From: Rhabdaerophilum calidifontis
Lineage (GTDB): Bacteria > Pseudomonadota > Alphaproteobacteria > Rhizobiales > Beijerinckiaceae
DNA length: 32,000 nt
Direction of reading: 5' to 3'
NCBI RefSeq assembly: GCF_008641065.1
Contig: NZ_VTRS01000012.1
Location: 22,206 to 54,205, forward strand
Shown: piece after piece, positions 6,981-26,715 of the stretch
How positions within the stretch are numbered: position 1 is the first letter of the stretch
Layout: each line of letters opens with the position of its first letter
Notes under the pieces: generated by a model
The model's input: only the letters and a program-made list of their open reading frames with translations
The model's database searches: none
Told to the model about the DNA's origin: nothing
Position numbers and translations under genes: made by a program

Positions 6981-8960
6981 ATGACCCGAAACATCGACCT
7001 GCCACCGCTGACGCGGGCGGCGGACCTGTTGCCTGCGTCGATCGATGCGGCCGAGCGCACCATCGAGGTTGTCTGGTCCACGGGCGCGCGTGTGCGCCGT
7101 ACTCCGTTCTTCGGCGATCCGTTCGACGAGGAACTGGCGATGGATCCGCGCGCCGTCCGTCTCGATCGCCTGAACGCGGGCGCGCCGCTCCTGAAGGTGC
7201 ATGATGCTTCCGTGCTCGACAGCGTCATCGGCTCGGTCGTGCCCGGCAGCGCCCGCATCGAGAACGGGCGCGGCATCGCCCGCGTCCGCTTTTCCGACCG
7301 GACCGAAGTCGAACCGCTCTGGAAGGACGTCGAGGCTGGGCACATCCGTGCGGTCTCGATCGGCTACCAGGTCCATCGCTTCGAGGTGACCAGGCAGGCG
7401 GGCGCACCCGAGCTGTGGCGCGCGGTCGACTGGACGCCCTTCGAGATTTCCGCCGTGCCGATCGGCGCTGATCCGGCAGCGGGTTTCCGCGCCGAGACAT
7501 CCTCCGAAAGTTCTTTGCCCCTTCACCCCTGCGTCGTCCACCGCGCCGACGCTCCATCCAAGGAGAAAGCAGCCATGGACGACGCTGTGACCGACAACAC
7601 TGAGACGCAGACGCGCCAGGCCGCGCCTGAACCGCAGGATCGCGTGCCGACCACACCCGTGATCGATGCGGAGACGATCGCCGCCCGCGCGCGCGATTCC
7701 GAACGCGAGCGGGTCGGAACTATCTACGATCTTGCCGGCCGCCTCCACCTCGAGCGCAGCTTCGCCGACGATCTCGTCAAGCGCGGCGTGACGCTTGATG
7801 CGGCGCGCAGCGAGATCCTCGACAAGGTCGCGACCGACGCCGAGAAGACGCGGGTTTCGCCTCAGGTCAGCATCCCGCTCGGCGGCCGCGATGAGCGCGT
7901 CACGCGTCGTGACGCCGTGTCGAACGCTCTTTTGCACCGCTACTCGCCGACGCTCTTCCCCTTGAGCGAACCGGCGCGGGAATATCGCGGCATGACGCTG
8001 GTGGAGCACGCCCGCGAGTTCCTCTCAAGCTCGGGCGTCAATGTCCGGGGCATGTCGCGTGATGAGATCGCCACCCGCGCCCTTCACTCCACCTCGGACT
8101 TCCCCGAAGTTCTCGCCGCCGTGACGGGCAAGACGCTGCGGCAGGCCTATGATGCCTATCCGCGCACTTACGTTCCCTTCTGCCGGCAGGTTCTCGCGAC
8201 CGACTTCAAGGCGATGCACCGTGTCCAGCTCGGCGAAGCGCCGCAGCTCGTGAAGGTCAACGAGGGCGGCGAGTTCAAGCGCGGCACTCTTGCCGAAGGG
8301 CGCGAGAGCTACCGTGTCGAGACCTACGGACGCGTCGTTGCGGTTACCCGGCAGGTCCTCATCAACGACGATCTCGACGCCTTCACCCGCATTCCGGCGA
8401 TGTATGGCACGGCAATCGCCACGCTGGAGAGCGACGTGGTCTGGGGCATCATCCTGGCCAACGCCGCAATGAGCGACTCCATCGCGTTGTTCCACCAGAA
8501 CCACGGCAATCTGGCGAACCCGGCCACCGCGCTCAGCGTCACCGCGATCGGCGCGGCGCGCGCGGCCATGGCCCGACAGACCGGCCTCGACAAGAAGACA
8601 ATCCTCAATGTCCGGCCCGCCTACCTCATCGTGCCGGCATCGCTCGAACTCGCGGCCGAGCAGCTGGTGGCGCAGAACTTGGTGCCGGCCCAGACCGGCA
8701 ACGTGGTCCCGTCCTCGATCCGCACCCTGACGCCGATCTCCGAGCCTCGTCTCGACGCCGCGAGCCTTACCGCCTGGTATCTCGCCGCGAACCCCGCCCA
8801 GATCGACACCATCGAGTACGCCTATCTCGAAGGCCAGCAAGGCGCCTACATCGAGACGCGCAACGGCTTCGATGTCGACGGCGTCGAGATCAAGTGCCGC
8901 CTCGACTTCGGCGCGAAGGCGATCGACTGGCGCGGCCTCTACCGCAATCCCGGCGCGTGA
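6981..8960 (+). CDS. prohead protease-major capsid protein fusion
   Basis: A single 659-aa ORF. The N-terminal roughly 190 aa resemble a caudoviral prohead serine protease (VHDASVLDSVIGSV...VEAGHIRAVSIGY). The middle is an acidic/charged linker. The C-terminal roughly 330 aa resemble an HK97-fold capsid protein (SDFPEVLAAVTGKTLRQAYD...RVVAVTRQVLINDDL). Confidence 0.8.
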   Translation: MTRNIDLPPLTRAADLLPASIDAAERTIEVVWSTGARVRRTPFFGDPFDEELAMDPRAVRLDRLNAGAPLLKVHDASVLDSVIGSVVPGSARIENGRGIARVRFSDRTEVEPLWKDVEAGHIRAVSIGYQVHRFEVTRQAGAPELWRAVDWTPFEISAVPIGADPAAGFRAETSSESSLPLHPCVVHRADAPSKEKAAMDDAVTDNTETQTRQAAPEPQDRVPTTPVIDAETIAARARDSERERVGTIYDLAGRLHLERSFADDLVKRGVTLDAARSEILDKVATDAEKTRVSPQVSIPLGGRDERVTRRDAVSNALLHRYSPTLFPLSEPAREYRGMTLVEHAREFLSSSGVNVRGMSRDEIATRALHSTSDFPEVLAAVTGKTLRQAYDAYPRTYVPFCRQVLATDFKAMHRVQLGEAPQLVKVNEGGEFKRGTLAEGRESYRVETYGRVVAVTRQVLINDDLDAFTRIPAMYGTAIATLESDVVWGIILANAAMSDSIALFHQNHGNLANPATALSVTAIGAARAAMARQTGLDKKTILNVRPAYLIVPASLELAAEQLVAQNLVPAQTGNVVPSSIRTLTPISEPRLDAASLTAWYLAANPAQIDTIEYAYLEGQQGAYIETRNGFDVDGVEIKCRLDFGAKAIDWRGLYRNPGA

Positions 8961-12857: not shown

Positions 12858-15800
12858 ATGTCCACCACCAATGTCTCGATCCGCCTCGGCGTCGAAGGCA
12901 AGGCGGAGGTCAAGCGCGCCTTCGAGGAGGTCGGCCAGGCGGGCACGCAGGCCTTCGGGCAGGTCGATCGGGCGCTTGAGAAGACGGGAGCCGCGACCGA
13001 TCGCGAAACTGCCCGGTTCAAGCGTCTGGCGGAAGCCGCCCGCATGGCGGCTCAGGCCGAGGCCGCGCAGGGACGGTTCAATCAGGTTCTGGGCGTCGAC
13101 CGACAGGCGGCGGGTTCGGCGCGCGCGTCGGCGGAAGTCTTCGAACAGGCCGCGAGGGAAGCCGAACGTTACGAGACCCGCGCCCGGGCGCTGCGCGCGA
13201 CGCTTGATCCGCTCGCCGCCGCGCAGGACCGGCTCAATGCCGAACTCGCCGAGCATGCGGCGCTCGCCAGCCGTGGCGCGATCACGACCGCCGAGCAGGC
13301 GGCCGCGAATGCGCTGGCGAAGTCGCGCTTCGATCAGACCGCGCAGGCGATCAAGGGCGTTGGCGCCAACTCGAAGCTCACGACCCAGCAGGTCATGACG
13401 CTTCAGTACACGGTGAACGACGTGATCGCGTCGATGTCCACCGGCATGTCGCCGATGACCATCCTGATGCAGCAGGGCGGACAGGTGACGCAGGCCTTCG
13501 GCGGCTTGCGCGGCACGATCATGACGCTCGGCTCCGCCATCGGCGTCGTCGGCGGAGTCATTGCCGGCGTTGCCGTCTCGGTTGGCGTGCTCACGGCGGC
13601 GTGGTTCGCCAATGACGCCTCGACACGAGCTGTCGCCACGGCGCTCGCCGGTGTCGGCCGCGCGTCCGGCGCGACCGCCGCACAGCTTGAGCAGGTCGCG
13701 CAATCCTCCGCCGAGGCCGGCAAGGTCTCGGTGTCGTCGGCGCGTGACATGCAGGTCGCGTTCCTGCGCACAGGCAAGATCGGCGCGGAAGAAATGGGCC
13801 GCGCCATCGCGGTCTCGCGCAATCTTGGCGTCACGCTCGGCGTCGAGACCACGCAGGGCGCGGAGGAACTCGCCCGCGCGCTGGCCGATCCGTTGCGCGG
13901 TGCGGATGAACTCAACGACCGCATCCGCTTCCTGGATGACCGCACCCGCGCCTATGTCCGCACGCTGGTCGATCAGAACAACCGGGCGGAAGCGCAGCGC
14001 GTCATCCTGAACGCGCTTGCGCCCTCGCTGGCCGACGCCGAACAGGCGGTCAATGCGCTCGGGCGGGCCTGGCAGTTCGTCGGGCGCTCGGCCTCGAATG
14101 CCTTCGACGCGCTGGGCAAGGCCGTCGACCGGGCGGTGGATGGCCGCACACCCACGGAGGAACTGGACCTGCTGCGCTGGCAGCAGGAGCGGCTCAGGGC
14201 GAATGTGCGCGGCAATGTCGTGCCGCTCATGCTGCCTCAGGTCGAGCGGCGGATCGCTGAACTCGAACGGCAGCTCAACGACCAACAGGAGCGTGCGAGG
14301 CGGATCGCCGCGGAGGCCCGCGCTAACGAGCAATCGGTGCGCGCTGGCGAGATCGCCCGCGACACCAACCCCGGCGCGCGCGAGATCGAGCGGCTGCGGA
14401 CGCAGGAAGGCGTGCTCCGCGCCGCGCTCGCCGATCCGCTGGTCCGCTCGAAACTGGCCGATGTGGCGGAGGTCGAAGCGGCCTACCGGCGTGTCATCAC
14501 GGAACTCGCCCGCTACCGACCCTCGGTCGATGCGGCGACGCAGGCCGTGGTGGAGCAGACCTCCGCCACGGACATCTCGATCCGCGCGACGCTCTCTCTG
14601 GCCGAGGCCTATCTCGAAAGCGCCGAGGCCGCCGCGCGCGCGGAAGCACGCCGGCAAGGGCTCGTCGATCAGGCCCGCGAGGGCGTCAACGCCGAAACCC
14701 GCGCGCGGCAGGCTCTGCGGGAACGGATCGCCGAACAGGCGGTCGAGGCCGCCCGGCAGGTATCGGAACTGGGCCGCCAGATCGACGGCCAGCGTCGGCT
14801 GAACGAAGCGATCGCGTCCGGTGCGCTCTCTTCCCAGCGCGCCCAGCAGATCATGCAGGTCGAGCAGGCGCTGCGCCCGCTGATCACGGCGCAGACGCTG
14901 GCCGAAGGCGAGGCCAAGGAGAAGCTCGGTCGCATCATCGACCGCACGCGCGAAGCCTACGAGCAGCTTCACCGCGAGCAGAACCGCACGGACCTTCTTC
15001 AAGGCATCGAACGACGCCGCGACGAGATCGCGCTGCGTGAGCGGGAACTGTCGCTGGTCCGGCGTGGCCCGGCCGCGCGTCGCGAGGGCGTCGATCAGCT
15101 GCGTTTCGAGCAGGAGCTGAAGCGGCTCGGGATCGACCCGAACGATCCCGAGGCCAGTTACTCCCGCGAGCAGATCAGGCGGCTCAACCAGTTGGGGCGC
15201 CAGACGACGGGTCGCGAGGCGGCGTTTGATTACGAGCAGCAGAACACCGGTCTCGCCCGCGAGGTCGAGCTCCTGAAGCAGGGCGTCTCGGCCCGCTCGG
15301 AAGCCATCGCCATGATCCGCGCCGAGCAGCAGCTTCGGCGGCAAGGGATCGATCCGGCGGGAGCCGAGGGACAGGCCGCGCTTGCCGCCGCCCGCCGCCA
15401 GTTCGCGCTTGAGCGCCAGGCGGAGGCGCAAGTCGCCTTGCAGGATCAGCGCGCCGAGATCGCCCTGATCGAGACCCAGATCGGCCTGATCGGCGCCTCC
15501 GCCCAGCAGCGTGAGACGGTGCTGGCGACCATGCGCGCCGAACAGGATCTGCGCCGGCGCGGCATCGACCTCGCGAGCGAGGAAGGCCGCGCCATTGTCG
15601 CCAATGCCGTCCGGTTGCAGCAACTGACGACGGAACTGCAGCGGCAGGAAGCGACGCAGCGGGCCTTGCAGGGCGCGATCGGCAACGCGCTCGACCGGTT
15701 CGGAACGCTGCTGGCGCAAGGCAAGACCGACTGGAAATCGTGGGCGGATGCCGGCCAGGCGGCGATCAACGACATCATGAACGAGCTCATCAAGCTCGCG

Positions 15801-16214
15801 GTGATGAATCCGCTCAAGAACTTCCTGTTCGGCGGCAATGCACCGACGTTGGCGACCGGCGGCGGCATCTTCGGAGAACTCGGGAAGATATTCGCCGGTC
15901 TGTTCCATGAGGGCGGGCTGGTCGGCGCGGGAGGGCCGGGCCGCAATTTGCCGGCCCTCCTGTTCGCGGGCGCGCCGCGCCTTCATGGCGGCGGCTACAT
16001 CCGGCCCGGCGAGGTGCCGGCCATCCTGCAAACCGGCGAGCGGGTATTGAACCGCAAGGAAACCGCAGCCTACGACCAGCGGGGCGAGCAGGCCGCGCCG
16101 ATGATGGTAACGTTCAACATCACGACCCCGGACGCGGGCTCGTTCCGCCGGGCGCAGGGCCAGATCACCGCCGAGATGGCCTCGGCGCTTGAAAGGGCGA
16201 GGCGAAACCTTTGA
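12858..16214 (+). CDS. tail tape measure protein
   Basis: 1118 aa, Ala/Arg/Glu/Gln-rich coiled-coil character with hydrophobic Gly-rich segments (about residues 185-260). It follows G/GT. By the lambda gpH rule of thumb (about 0.15 nm per residue) this predicts a tail of roughly 170 nm. Confidence 0.9.
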   Translation: MSTTNVSIRLGVEGKAEVKRAFEEVGQAGTQAFGQVDRALEKTGAATDRETARFKRLAEAARMAAQAEAAQGRFNQVLGVDRQAAGSARASAEVFEQAAREAERYETRARALRATLDPLAAAQDRLNAELAEHAALASRGAITTAEQAAANALAKSRFDQTAQAIKGVGANSKLTTQQVMTLQYTVNDVIASMSTGMSPMTILMQQGGQVTQAFGGLRGTIMTLGSAIGVVGGVIAGVAVSVGVLTAAWFANDASTRAVATALAGVGRASGATAAQLEQVAQSSAEAGKVSVSSARDMQVAFLRTGKIGAEEMGRAIAVSRNLGVTLGVETTQGAEELARALADPLRGADELNDRIRFLDDRTRAYVRTLVDQNNRAEAQRVILNALAPSLADAEQAVNALGRAWQFVGRSASNAFDALGKAVDRAVDGRTPTEELDLLRWQQERLRANVRGNVVPLMLPQVERRIAELERQLNDQQERARRIAAEARANEQSVRAGEIARDTNPGAREIERLRTQEGVLRAALADPLVRSKLADVAEVEAAYRRVITELARYRPSVDAATQAVVEQTSATDISIRATLSLAEAYLESAEAAARAEARRQGLVDQAREGVNAETRARQALRERIAEQAVEAARQVSELGRQIDGQRRLNEAIASGALSSQRAQQIMQVEQALRPLITAQTLAEGEAKEKLGRIIDRTREAYEQLHREQNRTDLLQGIERRRDEIALRERELSLVRRGPAARREGVDQLRFEQELKRLGIDPNDPEASYSREQIRRLNQLGRQTTGREAAFDYEQQNTGLAREVELLKQGVSARSEAIAMIRAEQQLRRQGIDPAGAEGQAALAAARRQFALERQAEAQVALQDQRAEIALIETQIGLIGASAQQRETVLATMRAEQDLRRRGIDLASEEGRAIVANAVRLQQLTTELQRQEATQRALQGAIGNALDRFGTLLAQGKTDWKSWADAGQAAINDIMNELIKLAVMNPLKNFLFGGNAPTLATGGGIFGELGKIFAGLFHEGGLVGAGGPGRNLPALLFAGAPRLHGGGYIRPGEVPAILQTGERVLNRKETAAYDQRGEQAAPMMVTFNITTPDAGSFRRAQGQITAEMASALERARRNL

Positions 16215-16792
16215 GCTTCCATGACGTGTCCTTCCCTGACGCCATCGCGCGCGGCGCGACCGGCGGCCCAGAATACTCGACCGACGTGGTGATGGTCGCG
16301 TCCGGCTTCGAGCAGCGCAACCAGAACTGGTCGGCCTCGCGCGCCCGCTACGACATCTCGACCGGCATCCGCACCCGCGAGCAGATGGCCGAGGTGATCG
16401 CCTTCTTCCGCGCCCGCAAGGGCCGCGCCTTCGGTTTCCGCTTCCGGGATTGGGGCGACTTCGAAGCCACCGACCAGCAATGCCAGGCGGTCAGTGCGAC
16501 GGTGTTCCAGCTGGTGAAGCGCTATCCGTCTGGCCCCGTCGTCGAAATCCGCACCATCACCCGCCCGGTGGTCGGTTCGGTCGTGGTGCGCGTCAACGGT
16601 AACGTCGTCACGCCGACCATCGATCACGCGACGGGTCGGCTCACCTTCGGCGCGGCCCCGGCGGCGACGCCGGTCGCGACCTTCCGTTTCGACGTGCCCG
16701 TGCGCTTCGACACCGACCACCTTCAGGTGATCAGCCGCGCCTATAACCTGCAGAACGTCCAGTCGATCCCGCTGGTCGAGATCAGGGCTTGA
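16211..16792 (+). CDS. distal tail protein, DUF2460/TIGR02217 family (RcGTA g12-like)
   Basis: 193 aa. The TTG start overlaps the tape measure stop (TTGA). The sequence reads FHDVSFPDAIARGATGGPEYSTDVV..ASGFEQRN.NW...R..YD....IR. Confidence 0.8.
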   Translation: MSFHDVSFPDAIARGATGGPEYSTDVVMVASGFEQRNQNWSASRARYDISTGIRTREQMAEVIAFFRARKGRAFGFRFRDWGDFEATDQQCQAVSATVFQLVKRYPSGPVVEIRTITRPVVGSVVVRVNGNVVTPTIDHATGRLTFGAAPAATPVATFRFDVPVRFDTDHLQVISRAYNLQNVQSIPLVEIRA

Positions 16793-16795
16793 CCC

Positions 16796-17635
16796 ATGAA
16801 ACCCACCACCCCCGCGCTTGCCGCGCATCTCGCCGGCGAGGTGACCACGCTTGCGACCTGCTGGCGGCTCGAACGGGCCGATGGCTGGGTTCGCGGTTTC
16901 ACCGACCATGACCGCGAGCTGGTCGTCGATGGGCTGACCTATGTCGCGTCGACCGGCTTCCTGCCGTCCGCGATCAAGACCGCCTCCGACCTCTCCGTCG
17001 ACAATCTCGATGTCGACGGCTTCCTCGACGATGCGGCGCTGCGAGCCGAGGACCTAATCGCCGGGCTGTTCGATGGCGCGCGGATCGAGGTCTTCATCGT
17101 CAACTGGGCAGACCTTGGCCAGGGACGGCTCCTGCTGCGCAAGGGCTTTCTCGGCGAGATCAAGCGCGCCGATCAGCGCTTCTCCGCCGAGATCAGGGGC
17201 CTGTCGAACCGGCTGCAGCAGACCGCCGGCAAGCTCTATTCGCGCCTGTGCCGCGTCGACCTCGGATCGAGCGAATGCGGCGTGGCGCTCGGCCCGCGCA
17301 CGGATACCTATGCGGTCACGCAGGTGATCGCCGCCGACACGGTGCGGATCGTCACGGCGCGCGCGACGGGCTTTTTCACCTTCGGCAAGGCGACCTTCAC
17401 GACCGGCGCCAATGCGGGCGCGGTCAACGAGGTGCTGCTACATGACGGCCAGACCATCCGGCTGTTCGTGCCGATGCCGCGGCCCATCGTGGTCGGCGAC
17501 CAGATCGTGCTCGTCGCCGGTTGCGACAAGACACCGGAGACCTGCAACGCCAAGTTCGCCAACATCCTGAACTTCCAGGGCGAGCCGCACATTCCGGGGA
17601 ACGACAAGGTGTTCTCCTATCCGGTGCGCTCATGA
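16796..17635 (+). CDS. DUF2163 domain protein (RcGTA g13-like hub protein)
   Basis: 279 aa containing LAAHLAGEVTTLATCWRLERADG...GFTDHDR.L..DG.TY and C-terminal GCDKT.ETC..KF.N..NFQGEPHIPG. Confidence 0.8.
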   Translation: MKPTTPALAAHLAGEVTTLATCWRLERADGWVRGFTDHDRELVVDGLTYVASTGFLPSAIKTASDLSVDNLDVDGFLDDAALRAEDLIAGLFDGARIEVFIVNWADLGQGRLLLRKGFLGEIKRADQRFSAEIRGLSNRLQQTAGKLYSRLCRVDLGSSECGVALGPRTDTYAVTQVIAADTVRIVTARATGFFTFGKATFTTGANAGAVNEVLLHDGQTIRLFVPMPRPIVVGDQIVLVAGCDKTPETCNAKFANILNFQGEPHIPGNDKVFSYPVRS

Positions 17636-18066
17636 CCGCCTTCACGCGTGCCGCCCTGATCGCCGAGGCGCGGACGTGGCTCGGCACGCCCTGGCATCAC
17701 CAGGCGGCGGTGAAGGGCGCGGGCTGCGACTGCATCGGCTTCGTGCGCGGCGCGGCCGAGCCGTTCATTGGCGTGATCACCCAGCCGATGAACTACGCCG
17801 CGACCTGGCCGCTTTACCGAGCGGAAGAGCGCCTGCGCGACGAGATGGCGGCGCATGCCACCGAGATCGACATCGCCGATGCCTTGCCCGGCGACATCCT
17901 GCTGTTTGGCGTCGGCAAAGGTCCGGCGCACCATTGCGGGTTCCTGAGTGAGGATAACCGCCTGCTGCATTGCTACCGGGAGGCCGGAGCCGTTGTCGAA
18001 CAGGATCTGACCGGGTTCTGGATCGAGAAGACGCGCGCCGCCTTTCGCCTGCCGGGCATCGCCTGA
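17632..18066 (+). CDS. NlpC/P60 family cell-wall peptidase (RcGTA g14-like)
   Basis: 144 aa with an ATGA overlap upstream. The sequence reads ARTWLGTPWHHQAAVKGAGCDCIGFVRG (catalytic Cys context) ...GDILLF....GPAHHCGF. Confidence 0.8.
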   Translation: MTAFTRAALIAEARTWLGTPWHHQAAVKGAGCDCIGFVRGAAEPFIGVITQPMNYAATWPLYRAEERLRDEMAAHATEIDIADALPGDILLFGVGKGPAHHCGFLSEDNRLLHCYREAGAVVEQDLTGFWIEKTRAAFRLPGIA

Positions 18067-18698
18067 TGGCGCGCATCGTCCTGACCGTCGCGGGCAATGT
18101 CATCGGCAACCTGCTGCTGCCCGGCCTTGGCGCTGCCATTGGCGGGGCGATCGGCACCTATGTGGGCGGCGTGGTTGACAGCCAGCTGTTCGGCAACGGC
18201 GCGCGCAACAATGTCGTCACCGGCCCGCGCCTGCAGGATCTGCGCGTGCAGTCATCCGGCTATGGCTCGGTGATCCCGCGCGTCTATGGCAAGGCGCGGC
18301 TATCCGGCAACGTGATCTGGATGCGCGGCTTCGACGAGGAGACGCGGACCCAGACGCAGACGGTCGGCGGCGGCGGCAAGGGCGGCGGTGGCGGGGGCCG
18401 GCAGACCACCACGACGGTCACCTACGTCTACTTCTGCGACGTGGCGGTGGCGCTCTGCGAAGGGCCAATCACCGGCATCGGAAAGATGTTCGCCGACGGT
18501 AACGCCATCGGCTCCGAGCACTATGCAGCGCGTCGCGTTTACCTCGGCGACGCCACCCAATCGGCCGATCCGCTGATCGCGGCGACCGAAGGCCTCGCGC
18601 CCGCCTATCGCGGCCTCGCCTATGTGGTGCTGGAGCGCTTCGCGATCACGCCCTTCGGCAACCGCCTGCCCAACTTCTCGTTCGAACTCACGGCCTGA
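18066..18698 (+). CDS. stand-alone paralogue of the N-terminal module of the g15-like host-specificity/baseplate protein
   Basis: 210 aa with a TGATG overlap upstream. It is colinear with residues 1 to about 213 of the next protein. Shared blocks: VLTVAG, YG..IPRV.G..R...N.IW.RG, GGGGKGGGGG, CEGP.T, ADPL.AA.EG, TPFGNR.PNF. Confidence 0.75.
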   Translation: MARIVLTVAGNVIGNLLLPGLGAAIGGAIGTYVGGVVDSQLFGNGARNNVVTGPRLQDLRVQSSGYGSVIPRVYGKARLSGNVIWMRGFDEETRTQTQTVGGGGKGGGGGGRQTTTTVTYVYFCDVAVALCEGPITGIGKMFADGNAIGSEHYAARRVYLGDATQSADPLIAATEGLAPAYRGLAYVVLERFAITPFGNRLPNFSFELTA

Positions 18699-18709
18699 AG
18701 GTCCGATCC

Positions 18710-21700
18710 ATGGCGCAACTCGTCCTGACCGTCGCCGGCGCATGGGCGGGCAACGCCATTGGCGGCGGGCTCGGCCAGGCGGCGGGCGCGATGCTGGGGT
18801 CCTATCTCGGCGCGGCGATCGAGCAGGATTTGTTCGGCCCAGGCCCCGCGGCCGTCAACAGGAGCGAGGGCGCGCGCGTCACCGACCTGCAGGTCTCGGG
18901 CTCCGCTTACGGCCAGCCGATCCCAAGGGTGTGGGGACGCGGGCGGATCGCGGCCAACATCATCTGGGTGCGCGGCATCAGGGAGACCGCGATCACCGAA
19001 ACCGAGACCACGGGTGGCGGCGGCAAGGGTGGCGGCGGCGGTCGTCGCCAGACCACGGTTCACACGCGCTACGAATACTCGGCCGACATCCTGCTCGGCG
19101 TCTGCGAAGGCCCGGTCACGGCGGTCTACCGGATCTGGGTCAACAACACGATGCTGGACCCCGAGCATGTCGGCGCGATCCGGGTCGGGTATGGCGAGGA
19201 CAGCCAGCAGGCCGATCCGCTGGTGGCGGCGGTCGAAGGCGCAGGCCGGACGCCCGCCCATCGCGGCCTCGTCACGGTCATGCTGGAGGACTTCAAGCTC
19301 ACGCCATTCGGCAACCGCTTTCCGAACTTCGAGGTCGAGATCTACCGGGGCTCGGACGATCCCGGCAATGCGCGCCACCTCGTCGAGGGCGTCTGCCTGA
19401 TCCCGGCCTCGGGCGAGTTCGTCACCGACACCGAGATCGTGCGCAAGGTCGGTCACGGCTCCGCGACGTCGCAGGCGGCGATCAACGCCAACACCGGCAC
19501 GAAGCGCTCGGACTTCCTCGTCTCGGTCGACAATCTGAAGCGCGAACTGCCGAACGTCGAATGGATCAACTTCGTCTACGCCTGGTTCGGCACGTCGATC
19601 GACGTTGCGACATGCGATCTCGTGCCCAAATGCGAGTACGCGCAAGGCCAATCCGGCGCATTCGGGGCTGAGACCGCGCCGCATATCTGGTCGGTCGCAG
19701 GTGGCGGGCGCTCCGTGTGGCCGGTTGTCACCTCCTACACGCTGCCAAACGGGCAGACCGCTCTCTCCTATGGCGGCACGATCAGCGACGGTTCGGTCAT
19801 CCGGGCGGTTCAGGAACTGAAAGCGCGCGGCTACAAGGTCCTCTTCTATCCCTTCATCATGATGGACATCCCGCCGCCCGATCCGGCGCCGTTCCCCTGG
19901 CGCGGCAGGATCACCGGCGCTGCGGCGGATGTGGCCGGGTTCTTCATCCGTCCTGCGGGCTATCTCCGCTTCATCCGCCACTGCATGACGCTCTGCGAGC
20001 AGGCGGGTGGCGTCGATGCCTTCGCCATCGGTTCGGAAATGGTCGGCCTCAACCGCATCCGGGATGGAAGCGGAGCCTATCCCGCCGTGCCGTTCTGGCA
20101 ACAGATCGCGGCGGACACCAAGACCAGGCTCGGTGCGAACTGCACCGTGACCTACGCCGCCGACTGGTCGGAATACCGCTACCATGATCGCGGCGGCGCG
20201 AACGTGGACTTCCCGCTCGACGCGCTCTGGGCCGACAGCAACATCGATGCGGTCGGCATCGACGCCTACTTCCCCATCACTGACGCCGACCGTTCGCTCA
20301 CCGACCCGGCGGCGATCGGCGCGGGCTGGGGCTCGGGCGAACTGATCAGCTATTTCTATGCGAGCGAGGCCGACCGGGACTTGGCCGGGCGCGGCGCCAA
20401 CCGTGTCCAGTCGCCGATCAGCGAGCCGTTCTGGGCGCTCAAGGACCTGCGCTGGTGGTGGGACAACGCCCACACGCCGCGCGTGGCAGGCGTGCCGACG
20501 GGAGGGCCAACCGCCTGGACGCCGAAGATGAAGCCGATCTGGCTCACCGAATACGGCTTCCCGTCGGTGCACTGCTCGCCGAACCGCCCGAACGTCTTCG
20601 TCGATCCGAAGTCGGCGGAGAGCTTCTACCCCTGGTACTCGAACCGATCAGTGGACCGCGTGGTCCAGCGCGTCGCGATCAAGGGCACCGAGGATTGGTG
20701 GCGGGACCCTGCCAACAATCCGCTCGACGGCCAGGGGCGGCGGATGATCGGGCCGCGCTTCCTCTGGTGCTGGGACGCGCGGCCTTACCCGTTTTTCCCG
20801 TCGCTGAAACGGGTCTGGCAGGACGGCGACAATTACCGCCTCGGCCATTGGGTTCAGGGAAAGATCGGCAACATGCAGCTCTCCGAGATCGTGCGCGATC
20901 TGTGCCTTCGCGCCGGGCTTTCCAATGCCGACATCGATGTGACGAGCCTCACCGATGAGGTCTCGGGTTATGTCGTCTCGGAGCGCAAGTCGCTGCGCGA
21001 GATGATCTCGGTCCTGCAGACCGCGTTCTTCTTCGATGCGGTCGAGAGCGGCGGGGTGCTGCGCTTCGTCAAGCGCGGCGGCGGAACCATCGTCGGCATC
21101 GACGCCAATGATCTTGGCGCGGCGGAAGGCGATGGGGACCGGGCGCGCATCCGCATCGAGCGCGCGCAGGATGTCGAACTGCCGATCTCGATCGACGTGG
21201 TGCATCTCGATGAGGCCCGCGATTACCAGAGTTCGACCGTCACGGGCCGCAGGCAGCTCGGCACGTCGCGCAGCGTGACCACCTTCTCGCTGCCGCTGAT
21301 CCTCTCGGTCGAGGAAGCTCAGACCATCGCTCAGCGTGCGCTCCGGGAAATCTGGCAGGGCCGCGTCACGCTCGAAGCCAAGCTGCCGACGCGCGCGATC
21401 CGCATCGATCCGACCGACGTGATCGAGGTGCCGGTCGATGGCGCAATCCGCCGCTTCCGGGTGACGTCCGTGACCTATGGCAAGCCGGGGCTCGTGCTGG
21501 TGCGCGGCGTCGCCACCGACGGCGACCTGCCGCAGTTCGTCACCGTGCCGACCGGATCGGGTGACCTCCAGCCGAACGTGCCGGACACCGCCGCGCCGAC
21601 GCGGGTCGAACTGATGGACCTGCCGTTGCTGACGGAAGCCGAGGCAGGCGAAGCGACCTCGTTCTATATGGCCGCATGCTCGCTCGGCGGCGCGCCGTTC

Positions 21701-22525
21701 CGGGGCGTCTCGCTGTTCCGGCCGACAGCGGACGGGCTCGACTACACCGTCTCCGGCGTCGCCGACGTCGCCTCGGTGATCGGCGACACGCTGACCGCGC
21801 TGGCGCCGGGACCGGCGCATGTCTGGGACAACGGCAATTCGGTCGAGGTTCAACTCGCCTTCGGCTCGCTCGAAAGCCTGCCCGATACCCGCATCCTCGA
21901 TGGCGCGAACGGCGCGCTGATCAATGGCGAGATCATCCAGTTCGCCAACGCGGTGCTGATCGGGCCGGGACGGTATCGGCTCTCGCGCCTGCTGCGCGGG
22001 CGGCTCGGGACCGAGCACCGGATCGCGACGCACGCCATCGGCTCGCGCTTCGTGCTGCTCGATCCGGGCCGGCTTGAACGCCCGACCTTCTCGGCCTCCA
22101 GCATCGGCCTCGCCATCGCCTGGCGCTTCGCGCCGGCGCCACAGGGGCCGACCGGGGACCAGTCCGGGCAAATCACCTTCGCGAATGGCGGCGAGGCCCT
22201 GAAGCCATGGTCGCCGGCGCATGTGCGGGGCACGCGCAATGGCGCGGGCGATTTGTCGATCAGCTGGATCCGCCGCACCCGCCATGGCGGCTGGTGGCGC
22301 GATCTGACGGATGTTCCCCTCAATGAAGAGACCGAGCGCTACGAGGTCGATGTGATGAACGGCGCGACGGTGGTCCGGACCATCACCGCTTCCGCGCCTA
22401 CCGCGATCTACACCGCCGCCCAGCAGGTCGCCGATTTCGGGTCGGCGCAGGCGAGCGTCACCGTCCGCGTCGTCCAGCTCTCGACCGCGATCGGGCGCGG
22501 CACGTCGACAATCGCGACACTCTAA
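18710..22525 (+). CDS. host specificity / baseplate multidomain protein (RcGTA g15-like)
   Basis: 1271 aa. N-terminal module as above, followed by a TIM-barrel-like region (KARGYKVLFYPFIMMD...AFAIGSEMVGL...GIDAYFP...IWLTEYGFPS) and a long C-terminal tail-tip region. Confidence 0.85.
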   Translation: MAQLVLTVAGAWAGNAIGGGLGQAAGAMLGSYLGAAIEQDLFGPGPAAVNRSEGARVTDLQVSGSAYGQPIPRVWGRGRIAANIIWVRGIRETAITETETTGGGGKGGGGGRRQTTVHTRYEYSADILLGVCEGPVTAVYRIWVNNTMLDPEHVGAIRVGYGEDSQQADPLVAAVEGAGRTPAHRGLVTVMLEDFKLTPFGNRFPNFEVEIYRGSDDPGNARHLVEGVCLIPASGEFVTDTEIVRKVGHGSATSQAAINANTGTKRSDFLVSVDNLKRELPNVEWINFVYAWFGTSIDVATCDLVPKCEYAQGQSGAFGAETAPHIWSVAGGGRSVWPVVTSYTLPNGQTALSYGGTISDGSVIRAVQELKARGYKVLFYPFIMMDIPPPDPAPFPWRGRITGAAADVAGFFIRPAGYLRFIRHCMTLCEQAGGVDAFAIGSEMVGLNRIRDGSGAYPAVPFWQQIAADTKTRLGANCTVTYAADWSEYRYHDRGGANVDFPLDALWADSNIDAVGIDAYFPITDADRSLTDPAAIGAGWGSGELISYFYASEADRDLAGRGANRVQSPISEPFWALKDLRWWWDNAHTPRVAGVPTGGPTAWTPKMKPIWLTEYGFPSVHCSPNRPNVFVDPKSAESFYPWYSNRSVDRVVQRVAIKGTEDWWRDPANNPLDGQGRRMIGPRFLWCWDARPYPFFPSLKRVWQDGDNYRLGHWVQGKIGNMQLSEIVRDLCLRAGLSNADIDVTSLTDEVSGYVVSERKSLREMISVLQTAFFFDAVESGGVLRFVKRGGGTIVGIDANDLGAAEGDGDRARIRIERAQDVELPISIDVVHLDEARDYQSSTVTGRRQLGTSRSVTTFSLPLILSVEEAQTIAQRALREIWQGRVTLEAKLPTRAIRIDPTDVIEVPVDGAIRRFRVTSVTYGKPGLVLVRGVATDGDLPQFVTVPTGSGDLQPNVPDTAAPTRVELMDLPLLTEAEAGEATSFYMAACSLGGAPFRGVSLFRPTADGLDYTVSGVADVASVIGDTLTALAPGPAHVWDNGNSVEVQLAFGSLESLPDTRILDGANGALINGEIIQFANAVLIGPGRYRLSRLLRGRLGTEHRIATHAIGSRFVLLDPGRLERPTFSASSIGLAIAWRFAPAPQGPTGDQSGQITFANGGEALKPWSPAHVRGTRNGAGDLSISWIRRTRHGGWWRDLTDVPLNEETERYEVDVMNGATVVRTITASAPTAIYTAAQQVADFGSAQASVTVRVVQLSTAIGRGTSTIATL

Positions 22526-22537
22526 GGGATTACATCC

Positions 22538-23749
22538 ATGCACATCTTCACCGGCAACGGCGTCTCCGACGCCGTCGCGAGCGATTCCGCCGTGGCGCAT
22601 GTCGCGCTGCGCGGGGCGTTCGGCGGCGGACTCGTGACCGCCGAAACGATCGCTCCGGATCTTCCGGACGGCGAGACCTCGAACTGGATTCCGATCCCCT
22701 CGGTCGCCGCGTCCGCTCCGACCTTGATCGCAATCCCCATCCCGGCGGGATGGCGCTGGCGGCTGCGGCTCTCCGGCGCGACGGCGCCGAACCTCGCCGT
22801 TGCGCGCATCGCCTTTCCCGCGACGGACGCCGGCTGGAACGCTCCGCTCGCCGGGCTCTTGCGGTCGGCTGGCGCCGCCGGCGGGCCGATCAGCATCGCC
22901 AACTTCCCAGCCGCGCAGGCGGTCACCGGCCCACTCACCGACGCGCAGCTCCGGGCAGCGCTCGTGCCGGTGCTTGCGCGGCCCGCGGACGGGCTTCTCG
23001 TCACCGGCTCTGCGACATCGGCAGCGACTCTGTTCACCCAGGATTGCGCGCCTCCGGACGCTCCCGCCTTCAATTCTGTCGCGGTGCAGATCACCAATCC
23101 GGGCACCGGATGCACTGTTGCTTACGAGGTCTCGAACGACGGCTTGACCTGGTCGGCGGTCACCGGCTCTACGCCCCTCTGGACGGCCGCTTCTGCCGGC
23201 AACAATCCCTCGACTTCCACAACCGCGGCCATGCTCGTCTTCCCGGTGTTCGCGCGCTTCTTCCGAGCGCGCGTCTCTACCTACGGCTCGGGCACCGTCG
23301 CGGCCGTCGCTGTCTTTCGACAGGACGCCCGGCCGATCACTACGATGAACGTCGGCCTCATCGCGACGACGGCGGCGATCGGCGACGTCGGCCTGCAGTT
23401 GCGTGCGACCGCCACCGGCGCAGCGACGATCCATCACGTGATCGCTGCGGCCACGACCAACGCTGCAGTCGTGAAGGCCGCTGCCGGCCGGCTCGTCGGC
23501 TGGTGCCTCGGCAATGCGGCGGCCGCTTGGCGCTACGTGAAGTTGCACAACATCGCCAGCGCGCCGACCGCCGGGACCGGCGTCGTCCTCACCATCGCGA
23601 TCCCGCCCAACGGCCTCGCCCAGCACGACATACCGGCCGGAATCGGATTCTCGACCGGCATCGGCCGCACGATCGTCTCGGGCTTCGCGGACGCTGACGC
23701 CACGGCGGTCACGGCCGGTGACGTCGTGGGCGACATGTTCTTCGCTTGA
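22538..23749 (+). CDS. hypothetical virion (fibre/receptor-binding region) protein
   Basis: 403-aa ORF with very high third-position GC and an RBS AAGGGA. It lies directly after the host-specificity gene. I recognise no family. Confidence 0.6.
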   Translation: MHIFTGNGVSDAVASDSAVAHVALRGAFGGGLVTAETIAPDLPDGETSNWIPIPSVAASAPTLIAIPIPAGWRWRLRLSGATAPNLAVARIAFPATDAGWNAPLAGLLRSAGAAGGPISIANFPAAQAVTGPLTDAQLRAALVPVLARPADGLLVTGSATSAATLFTQDCAPPDAPAFNSVAVQITNPGTGCTVAYEVSNDGLTWSAVTGSTPLWTAASAGNNPSTSTTAAMLVFPVFARFFRARVSTYGSGTVAAVAVFRQDARPITTMNVGLIATTAAIGDVGLQLRATATGAATIHHVIAAATTNAAVVKAAAGRLVGWCLGNAAAAWRYVKLHNIASAPTAGTGVVLTIAIPPNGLAQHDIPAGIGFSTGIGRTIVSGFADADATAVTAGDVVGDMFFA

Positions 23750-24501: not shown

Positions 24502-26715
24502 ATGATGAAGAAGGATCTGCTCTGGCCGAGCGCGCCAGGCGGCGGCGCTGACGTGCCCGGCGGCATCGCGGGCCATGTGCGCGGCGCTGCCCTTCAGGAC
24601 CAGGATGGCCGCGTCGCGCCGATGGTCAGCATTCTCGGCGCGCCGACCAAGTTCCGCGACGCCTTCGAGGCGTTCGACACGACCAGGCGCTGGAACGCCG
24701 TCCAGATCGCGCCCGGCGACATCGTGCAGGTCGACGGCAATGTCGCGGGCGCGAGCTATCTCGTGATCTCGAAGGATCCGCTCAGCGAGGCGACCGAAAC
24801 CATCATCGAGACGCTCGACAGCTTCACCATGCCCGTGCGCGTCGCCGCCGGCATCTCGCTGTCGCAGCGGATCAACGGGCAGGAGTTCTCGCTGGAGCTC
24901 GTCTCGACCGATGACTGGCCGGGCGTCGTGCCGCTCATTCCGGCAGGCCCGGTCGCCATTGCCTCGATCTCCCAGGCGACCACGACGCTCAGTGTCACGA
25001 CCGCCGCGCCGCATGGCCTCAGGATCGGCGAGCGGGTCTCGGTCTTCGGCGTCCCCGACAGCCGGCTCAACTATCCCTGTCTCACCATCGCGACAACGCC
25101 GACGCCCACGAGCTTCACCGCCACGGCCGGGCCGCAAGGCGCCATCCCCTCGGTGACGGCCGGGCCATTCAGCAGCGGCTCGATCATCAAGGCCGATCCC
25201 TTGGGCTATGCTCGCAATGGATCGAGCCTCGTTTTCGAGGGCACGACCGCGACGAACGAGAGCTACTATGTCCGCTCGGAGGGCGGCGACGCGCTGCCGT
25301 CGGGCACGATCGCAGGCAACCATGCCGCGGCCTTCTCGGTATCGACCGTCGCCACTCAGCTGGTCGCGGCGGCGGGGGCCTATGCGTTTGCACCTGCCGC
25401 CCTGTTCGAGATCCTGCCTCAACTCGAAAAGGTCACCTTCAGCGGCTCGCCCATCGACAGCGCCGGCGCGATCTCGGCCATGTTCAAGCGCACGCAGGTC
25501 GTTCCCAATCCGGCTCGCGACTACAAGCTTCGGCTGCGTGCGAAAAACCACCGGTCTCTGTCGCGCCCCGTCGGCAGGATCGTCTCGGCGGCCAAGGCGG
25601 GGTCGGCGACGGTGACCATCACGTTCGACCAGCCGCACGGATTGACGGTCGCCGATCTTGTCGTGGTCTTCGGCATCCGCGATCAGGTGAACTTCGCCAA
25701 TCTGGCGACCCCAACCGCCGTCGCGAGCGTGCCCAGCGCCACGACGATCACGATTCCCATCGGCGCGTCGGCGACCGCGACGTCATTTGGCGGCGTGGTC
25801 ATCCGGGTGAATGGCGGCGTCTTCGGCGCTCCCATCGGCCAGGTCGCGCAATCCGTTGCCCGCGCCGCCAATGTGCTGACGGTCACCGGCTCAGCCGCCT
25901 GGTCGGGACTGCAGATCGGCCAGTACGTCAATCTGCATGGCGTTCGTGACGCCGTGTCCGGAGCCGATCTCGGGCTCGACGGACCCTGGCGCGTGCGCGA
26001 CCTCGCAACGACCGCGCTCGTTCTCGAACCCATCGGAACAGCCCCGACTGGCGCGGATATCGTCACGACGAACTGCGGCGGCGCGGTACTCCCGCGCACC
26101 GACTTCCGGGTTCACTTCATCCGCATGATGGAGTTCACGCGCCTCATCACCGAATCCATCGGCGGCTTCGGGCGGGCCGACCAGATGGATGCCGCCCCGG
26201 TCCTGGTCACCAACGCCGTATCGGCGGTCACCGTCACCGGCGGCGTGGCGCAGGACGCTGTCGCGGGCAATCCGGTCGGGATCGGTGCGCGCGCCGCCAA
26301 CGTCAACCAGGCCGCGATGTCGGCGACCGGCGATCTCGTGCACCTCATGGCGACGATGATCGGCGCGCTCGTCAACAAGCCGTTCTCGATCCCTGAAGCC
26401 GATTGGAGCTATGCGCCTGCCGGCGTGATCGCCAGCACGGCGGACGTGTTGATCGCCGCCGCGGCCGGTGCTGGCATCCGCCGCTATGTCACCGCGATCC
26501 AGGTGATCAACACCAACGCGGTCGCAACCGAGTTCGTGATCAAGGACGGCGCCACGGTGATCTGGCGGATCTGGCTCCCCGCCAGCATGACGACGCCCTG
26601 GGACATCGACTTCCCCACGCCGCTGCGTTCCAGCGCCAATGCCGCGCTCAACGCCGCCGCCATCACCAGCGGCGCCAGCATCTATCTCGACGCGCAAGGC
26701 TACACCGCGCCCTGA
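24502..26715 (+). CDS. large hypothetical virion protein with three internal HGL-type repeat modules
   Basis: 737 aa with an RBS AGGAG. Repeats lie at about 24955-25125, 25570-25785 and 25843-26037 (T.T....PHGL..G..V.VFGV.D...N......). Confidence 0.65.
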   Translation: MMKKDLLWPSAPGGGADVPGGIAGHVRGAALQDQDGRVAPMVSILGAPTKFRDAFEAFDTTRRWNAVQIAPGDIVQVDGNVAGASYLVISKDPLSEATETIIETLDSFTMPVRVAAGISLSQRINGQEFSLELVSTDDWPGVVPLIPAGPVAIASISQATTTLSVTTAAPHGLRIGERVSVFGVPDSRLNYPCLTIATTPTPTSFTATAGPQGAIPSVTAGPFSSGSIIKADPLGYARNGSSLVFEGTTATNESYYVRSEGGDALPSGTIAGNHAAAFSVSTVATQLVAAAGAYAFAPAALFEILPQLEKVTFSGSPIDSAGAISAMFKRTQVVPNPARDYKLRLRAKNHRSLSRPVGRIVSAAKAGSATVTITFDQPHGLTVADLVVVFGIRDQVNFANLATPTAVASVPSATTITIPIGASATATSFGGVVIRVNGGVFGAPIGQVAQSVARAANVLTVTGSAAWSGLQIGQYVNLHGVRDAVSGADLGLDGPWRVRDLATTALVLEPIGTAPTGADIVTTNCGGAVLPRTDFRVHFIRMMEFTRLITESIGGFGRADQMDAAPVLVTNAVSAVTVTGGVAQDAVAGNPVGIGARAANVNQAAMSATGDLVHLMATMIGALVNKPFSIPEADWSYAPAGVIASTADVLIAAAAGAGIRRYVTAIQVINTNAVATEFVIKDGATVIWRIWLPASMTTPWDIDFPTPLRSSANAALNAAAITSGASIYLDAQGYTAP

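Follow-up and report, generated by a model that had tools for sequence, protein, structure and literature searches.

The 32,000-nucleotide stretch of Rhabdaerophilum calidifontis DNA analysed here (contig NZ_VTRS01000012.1, positions 22,206 to 54,205 of the forward strand; hereafter, the window) encodes, among the tail genes of a prophage, a protein of 210 amino acids (S) directly upstream of a full-length megatron baseplate protein of 1271 amino acids (L). S consists of the iris/penetration and adhesin-like (hdII-insertion) domains known from the megatrons of the gene transfer agent (GTA) RcGTA and of phage R4C, and it is a paralogue of the N-terminal module (N-module) of L. On balance, we consider it probable that S is a functional, anciently duplicated free N-module, which acts as a tail-tip subunit of its own and provides a second plug/penetration set beside that of L.

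Homology and domain content of S

A preliminary description of this DNA had proposed that the short open reading frame (ORF) is a stand-alone copy of the g15-like N-module, colinear with about the first 213 residues of L and, by eye, identical to it at roughly half of the positions. Pairwise alignments of the two proteins and of their DNA were run as it had suggested, and they put the homology on a formal footing. In BLASTP, residues 1-208 of S aligned colinearly with residues 1-211 of L with 103/211 identities (49%), 3 gaps and E=2e-45, and the remaining 1060 residues of L gave no further significant match to S. All of the sequence blocks quoted earlier, i.e., MA..VLTVAG, YG..IPRV.G..R...N.IW.RG, GGGGKGGGGG, CEGP.T, ADPL.AA.EG and TPFGNR.PNF, were present in both proteins. 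At the DNA level, S and the L module are diverged tandem direct repeats 644-653 nt apart, and the longest blocks in common are 99 nt at 77% identity and 48 nt at 79%. At the C-terminus, S ends as ...NFSFELTA*, and L runs on as ...NFEVEIYRGSDD. The end of S lies 2-4 residues past the FE[VLI] motif that closes the adhesin-like domain, which is the boundary between the adhesin-like and peripheral domains at residues 211/212 of R4C. The short copy thus ends where the common module ends, as had been stated.

A profile of the S family matched RcGTA g15 over residues 1-201 (PDB 6TBA/6TEH, E=1.6e-47) and the R4C megatron over residues 1-207 (8GTC, E=9.7e-39). With the NCBIfam equivalog model NF048004 (GTA_megatron), whose cut-off is 800 bits, L passed at 1198.1 bits, and S scored 240.7 bits over model positions 1-201 of 1299. 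These matches bear out the assignment of S as a stand-alone N-module. Because its score falls below the cut-off, S (WP_150288513.1) is called "hypothetical protein" in RefSeq, while L (WP_150288514.1) is named "baseplate multidomain protein megatron". When the megatron architecture was tested, the iris/penetration segment (about residues 1-46) and the adhesin-like domain (about 47-211) were present in S, and the peripheral (GTA_TIM), central (Phage-tail_3) and fibre-binding (Rcc01698_C) domains gave Pfam matches in L and none in S. The iris/penetration and adhesin-like domains comprise residues 1-46 and 47-229 in the RcGTA megatron (PMC7296036), and residues 1-45 and 46-211 in that of R4C (PMC10276861). 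The iris is made of three N-terminal helices that shut the tail channel, and their insertion into the outer membrane after triggering has been proposed (PMC7296036; PMC10276861). In a study of phage T5, the element that closes the tube of the GTA was taken to be equivalent to the hdII insertion in the baseplate hub (PMC10038345).

The AlphaFold2 (AF2) model of S had a mean predicted local distance difference test score (pLDDT) of 70.5, with a beta-rich core that was mostly at 80-93 over residues 71-100 and 121-210. The pLDDT of residues 1-46 was low, which is to be expected of a segment that takes on order only within the assembly. In a Foldseek search with this model, the best PDB chains were 6TBA_8A (E=1.7e-9) and 8GTC_M (E=3.2e-6), followed by T5 pb3, and the predicted viral structures that resembled it were megatron and J-type tip proteins. 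The match to T5 pb3 (7ZHJ_b, 7ZQP_b) was weak, with a probability of 0.97-0.98, an E value of only 0.07-0.09 and a template modelling (TM) score of 0.36-0.39.

The first 42 residues are strongly hydrophobic in both copies, and glycines at positions 10, 14, 22, 26, 30 and 34, i.e., with a period of 4, are invariant in the S and L families. The Pfam glycine-zipper models PF13488 and PF13441 matched S weakly and below their gathering thresholds (21.5 bits vs 25, and 18.6 vs 28.9). The mean Kyte-Doolittle values of the N-terminus, 1.21 for S and 1.05 for L, differ too little for hydrophobicity to serve as a discriminator between the two. At 13 positions that are conserved differently in S and L, outgroup sequences sided clearly with neither (52 vs 61 matches). 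From this small hydrophobicity gap and the unsided outgroups, therefore, no division of labour between S and L can be read.

Conservation and origin of the free module

In protein searches, the S family comprised proteins of 208-218 aa with identities from 99% down to about 54%, and the 90%-identity cluster of the window S protein contained 91 member sequences. Loci were collected from context look-ups and from scans of genomes and IMG/VR contigs, and those in which both gene starts were recovered were counted. An intact S (208-217 aa) stood directly upstream of a full-length L in 53/53 of these non-redundant prophage or viral loci. The hosts are Hyphomicrobiales, namely Phreatobacter, Bosea, Methylocystis, Rhodoplanes, Blastochloris, Bauldia, Pseudolabrys, Variibacter and other Xanthobacteraceae. 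The pairing with L is obligate: when IMG/VR contigs were searched from the L side, every contig with an L N-module at least 55% identical also had S, and no L of the S-carrying clade was seen without it. The next matches to the L module in IMG/VR were at most 40% identical, and were single-copy megatrons.

S is under purifying selection. The ratio of nonsynonymous to synonymous substitution rates (dN/dS), restricted to close pairs in which dS was unsaturated, was 0.05-0.12 for S and 0.02-0.15 for the L N-module. S was better conserved than the L module in 90% of locus pairs (57 loci), and the position of its C-terminus was kept within 2-4 residues down to 55% identity. Relatives were thus found to carry S conserved and intact, not as the decaying fragment that the preliminary description had considered, and the mosaic recombination scar that it had offered as one explanation did not hold. 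That S is a non-functional in-frame remnant, either scar or pseudogene, is extremely improbable. Two loci could speak for it, one with a frameshifted S (L022) and one in which S is truncated at residue 186 and L is absent (L012), but both are contigs of metagenome-assembled genomes (MAGs), of which one has a second local frame disturbance and the other is a remnant or chimera; the intact S at 53/53 loci, the low dN/dS and the conserved C-terminus contradict this reading.

Most of the protein-search matches of 200-366 aa that could have been taken for extra free modules were contig-cut or frameshifted full-length genes (e.g., L008). In the GTA-like N-module of P0064, a 200-aa protein on a 1.3-kb ENA contig, the final 30 residues are identical to those at the C-terminus of the window S; this protein is either a genuine recombinant or a chimera produced in assembly.

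Neighbour-joining (NJ) trees were used to place S and the L module among the N-modules of other megatrons. Against 18 single-copy modules, the S clade was recovered in 193/200 bootstrap replicates, the L clade in 198/200 and a clan of S and L together in 176/200. Against 159 outgroup modules, which were the best matches of an S-profile search over 1.84 billion representative proteins and hence chosen for similarity to S, the values were 99, 100 and 83 of 100, respectively. Full-length outgroups were drawn from viral contigs and the representative protein library. The support for S+L stayed at 78-88% with p-distances, with gamma-corrected distances, or after removal of the N-terminus and glycine tract (83-88% on all columns and 78-80% on the core domain). 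The subtree of S was congruent with that of L, with a Pearson correlation of r=0.97 between their pairwise identities, and some local reassortment of S and L is visible among close relatives: the window shares 95.7% (S) and 98.6% (L) with locus L010, and 98.1% (S) and 94.4% (L) with locus L023. Of the 159 outgroups, 97% were nearer to S than to L (mean identity 44.1% vs 40.6%), and therefore the fused copy in L is the derived one.

From these sequence comparisons, a single old tandem duplication is the favoured origin, after which S and L were inherited together. Of the two origins named in the preliminary description, the old paralogue is supported by the S+L clan (bootstrap 78-88%) and the congruent subtrees, and a graft from another phage is less likely on the distance trees. 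Distance trees are not decisive for the origin of S. P0247, the best outgroup, shares 51% identity with S, which is about the level of L (mean S-L identity, 49%), and therefore some probability is kept by a different origin, in which S was the resident free module of a former split megatron whose downstream, module-less gene was later replaced by a complete foreign megatron. Split architectures with the same boundary exist, horizontal exchange of baseplate genes has been reported for these phages (PMC12014285), and the discordant identities of L010 and L023 would fit such a replacement. We nevertheless regard this origin as quite unlikely, because the S+L clan was found in every NJ analysis against the 159 S-similar outgroups, and because the free modules of two other loci (P0268 of L132 and P0270 of L131) fall outside the S clan. 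P0185, at first a candidate for a full-length protein with an S-like module, proved to be a fragment of the L clade.

These two free modules, P0268 (223 aa) and P0270 (205 aa), were among the representative matches and end at the S boundary. The first belongs to a natural split megatron of an unrelated metagenomic phage that was seen in two samples (L132:4880-10503, ENA ERZ10759765 NODE_4773; also L133). Its gene order is g12-g13-g14, the free 223-aa N-module (model positions 1-200) and then a 1651-aa protein, the two overlapping by ATGA. The latter covers only megatron positions 844-1299 (central and fibre-binding domains); about 1190 N-terminal residues are without assignment, and no similarity to the N-module was found in it. 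This arrangement is like S in having, after g14, a free N-module with an FEVxx end, here overlapping the next gene, but the downstream protein has no N-module, i.e., it is a fission and not a duplication. As the free module is the sole copy there, it must close the tip, and the module can therefore act in trans. Since P0268 lies outside the S clan, the same junction was used at least twice.

Duplication at the megatron position is tolerated in an isolated phage, as seen from the tandem paralogues of Caulobacter phage CcrColossus (L129:8331-15519), where two full-length megatrons, gp122 and gp123, follow an NlpC/P60 gene. Their N-modules are 59% identical and their C-terminal approximately 630 residues 53% identical, and the middles are unrelated. 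In contrast to the window, which has one free module and one full-length protein, neither paralogue lacks any part of the full length (1198 and 1196 aa), and their N-termini are shorter, with the conserved GPRL.DL motif starting at residue 25 instead of residue 53 in S. Other jumbo Caulobacter and Brevundimonas phages also showed two matching places per record. In Caulobacter phage Ccr34, which has a phiCbK-like genome, the megatron is annotated as two ORFs, gp103 (266 aa) and gp104 (869 aa) (L130:4920-8395). Ccr34 gp103 was the top BFVD fold match of S and was rejected as a duplicate, since it appears to be part of one megatron gene in two annotated pieces, by a frameshift or split.

Gene neighbourhood and expression of S

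The positions of S, L and the preceding tail genes are listed in Table 1. Lambda-type terminase, portal and capsid genes lie upstream of the tail set, and therefore the region is a prophage and not an RcGTA-type cluster.

Table 1. Tail-tip genes and S/L modules in the window
Feature	Positions	Strand	Basis or remarks
Tape measure gene	12858-16214	+	Part of a GTA/phiJL001-type tail-tip gene set
g12-like distal tail protein (DUF2460)	16211..16792	+	Pfam PF09343, E=6.6e-65
g13-like baseplate hub protein	16796..17635	+	Pfam PF09931, E=3.2e-61; PF09356, E=9.7e-29
g14-like NlpC/P60 tail peptidase	17632..18066	+	Start inferred; Pfam PF00877, E=7e-07; phrog_329 minor tail protein, E=6.6e-18
S, free 210-aa paralogue of the megatron N-module	18066..18698	+	WP_150288513.1; ATG at 18066, TGA at 18696-18698; BLASTP to L, NF048004, PDB 6TBA, Foldseek, 53 loci
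S residues 1-46, hydrophobic glycine-zipper segment corresponding to iris/penetration domain	18066..18203	+	Aligned to RcGTA and R4C residues 1-46
S residues 47-210, beta-rich adhesin-like / hdII-insertion (tube-closing) domain	18204..18695	+	AF2 and Foldseek; limits from PMC7296036, PMC10276861
Spacer of 11 nt, S stop to L start (AGGTCCGATCC)	18699..18709	+	Shine-Dalgarno-like GAAGG spanning the S stop codon
L, full-length megatron baseplate protein, 1271 aa	18710..22525	+	WP_150288514.1; NF048004, 1198 bits; Pfam GTA_TIM, Phage-tail_3, Rcc01698_C
L residues 1-213, fused copy of the S module	18710..19348	+	Alignment to S; faster-evolving copy

S is a late tail operon product, translationally coupled to the tail peptidase gene. 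The TGA of the NlpC/P60 gene shares 1 base with the start codon of S (TGATG; GCCTGATGG), which agrees with the coupling described earlier, and the 11-nt distance given there from S to the start of L was also found. An alternative in-frame TTG at 17970 would give a 242-aa ORF, but it is unlikely as the start of S because the N-terminus MARIVLTV is conserved in the family and aligns with MAQLVLTV of L. No promoter-like sites were detected across 16000-23000, including around S, and no terminator-like sites before position 21009, which is inside L. Both genes start with ATG in the window. In the set of 53 loci, GTG or TTG is the start codon of L in 37/53 and ATG that of S in 41/53, and this contrast may set the ratio of S to L expression.

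In relatives, the distance from the stop of S to the start of L is -1, 3, 6, 11 or 12 nt, usually 3 or 11, and the relative frame varies. This variable spacing and frame ruled out an S-L fusion by read-through or frameshift. At some loci, toxin-antitoxin cassettes on the opposite strand lie exactly between S and L, with both genes intact: a RES-Xre cassette in Rhizobiales bacterium YIM 77505 (L005:8653-9745, and at the same place in L013), and a HigB/HigA-like cassette on an IMG/VR contig (L046:6637-7387). The S-L junction seems to be an insertion site for accessory genes, and as S and L are intact around the cassettes, S is independent of physical linkage to the start of L.

Such cassettes would also suit a role outside the virion, with S as a membrane protein for superinfection exclusion or as a decoy against the tips of related phages, and the 40-residue hydrophobic glycine zipper could anchor it in the membrane. 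We judge this very unlikely. S is always in the tail operon at the same position, it overlaps the preceding tail gene by 1 nt with no promoter-like site upstream, and its hydrophobic segment is common to every virion megatron.

A different remodelling of the region was observed in Blastochloris viridis (CP012946; L003:1-16645). Transposase and recombinase genes have taken the place of g12-g14 and of all that lies upstream, but S and L are retained, as are DUF2793, a 735-aa protein, GH108 and a holin-like gene. This genome also encodes another S protein (ALK08995) at a separate location. Downstream of L in the window, ORFs of 403 and 737 aa on the + strand (22538-23749 and 24502-26715) gave no match in Pfam and NCBIfam. 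A counterpart of about 735 aa follows DUF2793 in L001 and L003, and in this phage group the protein probably serves as a conserved part of the fibre or spike. Far upstream, a 659-aa ORF (6981-8960) with a weak Peptidase_S78 prohead protease match (residues 81-170) and a Phage_capsid_4 match (residues 367-656) looks like a protease-capsid fusion gene.

A probable second plug at the tail tip

The megatron is present as a single copy in RcGTA and R4C (PMC7296036, PMC10276861); the g12-g15 arrangement with one such protein, as given in the preliminary description, is right for both. S has homology to these megatrons over its whole length and shares their fold (as predicted), their hydrophobic glycine-rich N-terminus and the g12-g13-g14 neighbourhood, but it is a separate polypeptide beside a complete megatron, whereas theirs is fused. 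Phage lambda offers another comparison. Its gpI is a trimeric plug of the tail-tip lumen that is found in virions and is encoded between K and J, and its hydrophobic segment is proposed to contact the outer membrane (PMC10721106). Like S, gpI is a free protein of about 220 aa with a hydrophobic segment, and its gene lies between an NlpC/P60 gene (K) and that of a large tip protein (J); unlike L, J has no plug copy of its own. In T5, the hdII insertion of pb3 is the tube-closing hub element, which refolds and anchors in the outer membrane when triggered, and pb3 can be aligned with the GTA hub and megatron taken together (PMC10038345). The T5 plug is an internal domain of one polypeptide, while S is a free protein.

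An extra baseplate subunit, one of the options raised at the outset, is the best-supported reading of S. We infer that S would be present in the virion, with a stoichiometry, location and membrane step that would be as follows. S would join the tail tip non-covalently as its own, presumably trimeric, subunit, and the tip would then carry two plug/penetration sets, one free (S) and one tethered (the N-terminus of L). On triggering, free S could leave together with the peptidase and the tape measure protein, after which its glycine-zipper N-terminus could add to an outer-membrane pore or anchor. By analogy, this role would parallel that of lambda gpI as a free plug/insertion protein between K and J. 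The invariant glycines of period 4 and the hydrophobicity kept in both S and L appear to favour a membrane-helix role.

Several points weigh against S as a second plug. In the solved baseplates of RcGTA and R4C, which are three-fold assemblies, each megatron contributes a single module, and the closed RcGTA baseplate, according to its authors, has no room even to shift the iris helices (PMC7296036). It is therefore not obvious where three additional modules would fit. S gave no Lambda_tail_I Pfam match at E<=0.01, and no lambda chain was among the 50 listed Foldseek PDB matches of S, so that the parallel to gpI is one of position and function, not of homology. A mimic of the megatron N-terminus could equally act in assembly only.

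Because of this steric problem, the assembly-only role stays a serious rival, even if we regard it as unlikely. In this case, S would be absent from the finished virion: it would mimic the N-module and transiently occupy or template the hub/megatron interface or, in a variant, hold the peptidase and the end of the tape measure protein during tail-tip assembly, and would then be displaced. Its place in the tail assembly operon beside g14 would suit an assembly factor, as would the lack of an evident free site in the solved three-fold baseplates (PMC7296036) and the precedent of lambda gpK, the neighbour of gpI, which was not detected in virions (PMC10721106). Purifying selection and the obligate pairing with L fit equally well. 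On the other hand, the free module of the split megatron in L132 is the only copy and so is a structural plug there, S has retained its hydrophobic glycine-zipper N-terminus in full, a segment for which a cytoplasmic chaperone would have no use, and S is nearer to the ancestral sequence state than the L module is.

If S is a virion subunit, its N-termini might also be combined with those of L. In this tentative model, to which we give little probability, the two would co-assemble as a two-tier or six-membered gate, in which 3 S and 3 L supply the pore helices, and the pore would have the width to let through the peptidase, the tape measure protein and the DNA. S would be the ejectable half with the ancestral plug role, and the tethered copy in L would have the derived role. 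If true, this would be the first siphophage-type tail tip with a gate made from two paralogous copies of one module.

The domains and the machine considered here were known. What is new is the free-plus-fused duplicated arrangement that is fixed in a phage clade, together with an independent fission; no account of a free megatron N-module paralogue came up in full-text searches of the literature. The finding provides a structural identity for a family that RefSeq calls "hypothetical protein". It marks the adhesin-like/peripheral junction as a natural point of gene fission and fusion, which extends the view that hub domains are spread differently among tip polypeptides. With a fused copy that evolves faster than the free one, the pair is also a small, clean case of paralogue specialisation in a virion machine. 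So far, outer-membrane crossing by GTA-like siphophages and GTAs is explained only by a proposed mechanism, in which the N-terminus of the megatron exits the iris to form a pore (PMC7296036, PMC10276861). The S clade and the L132 type encode this penetration module naturally as a small protein of soluble size (210 aa in S), which makes it tractable for membrane-insertion, oligomerisation and structural work. In the phage group described here, the injection tip is probably made with two copies of one plug, one of them free and the other fused.

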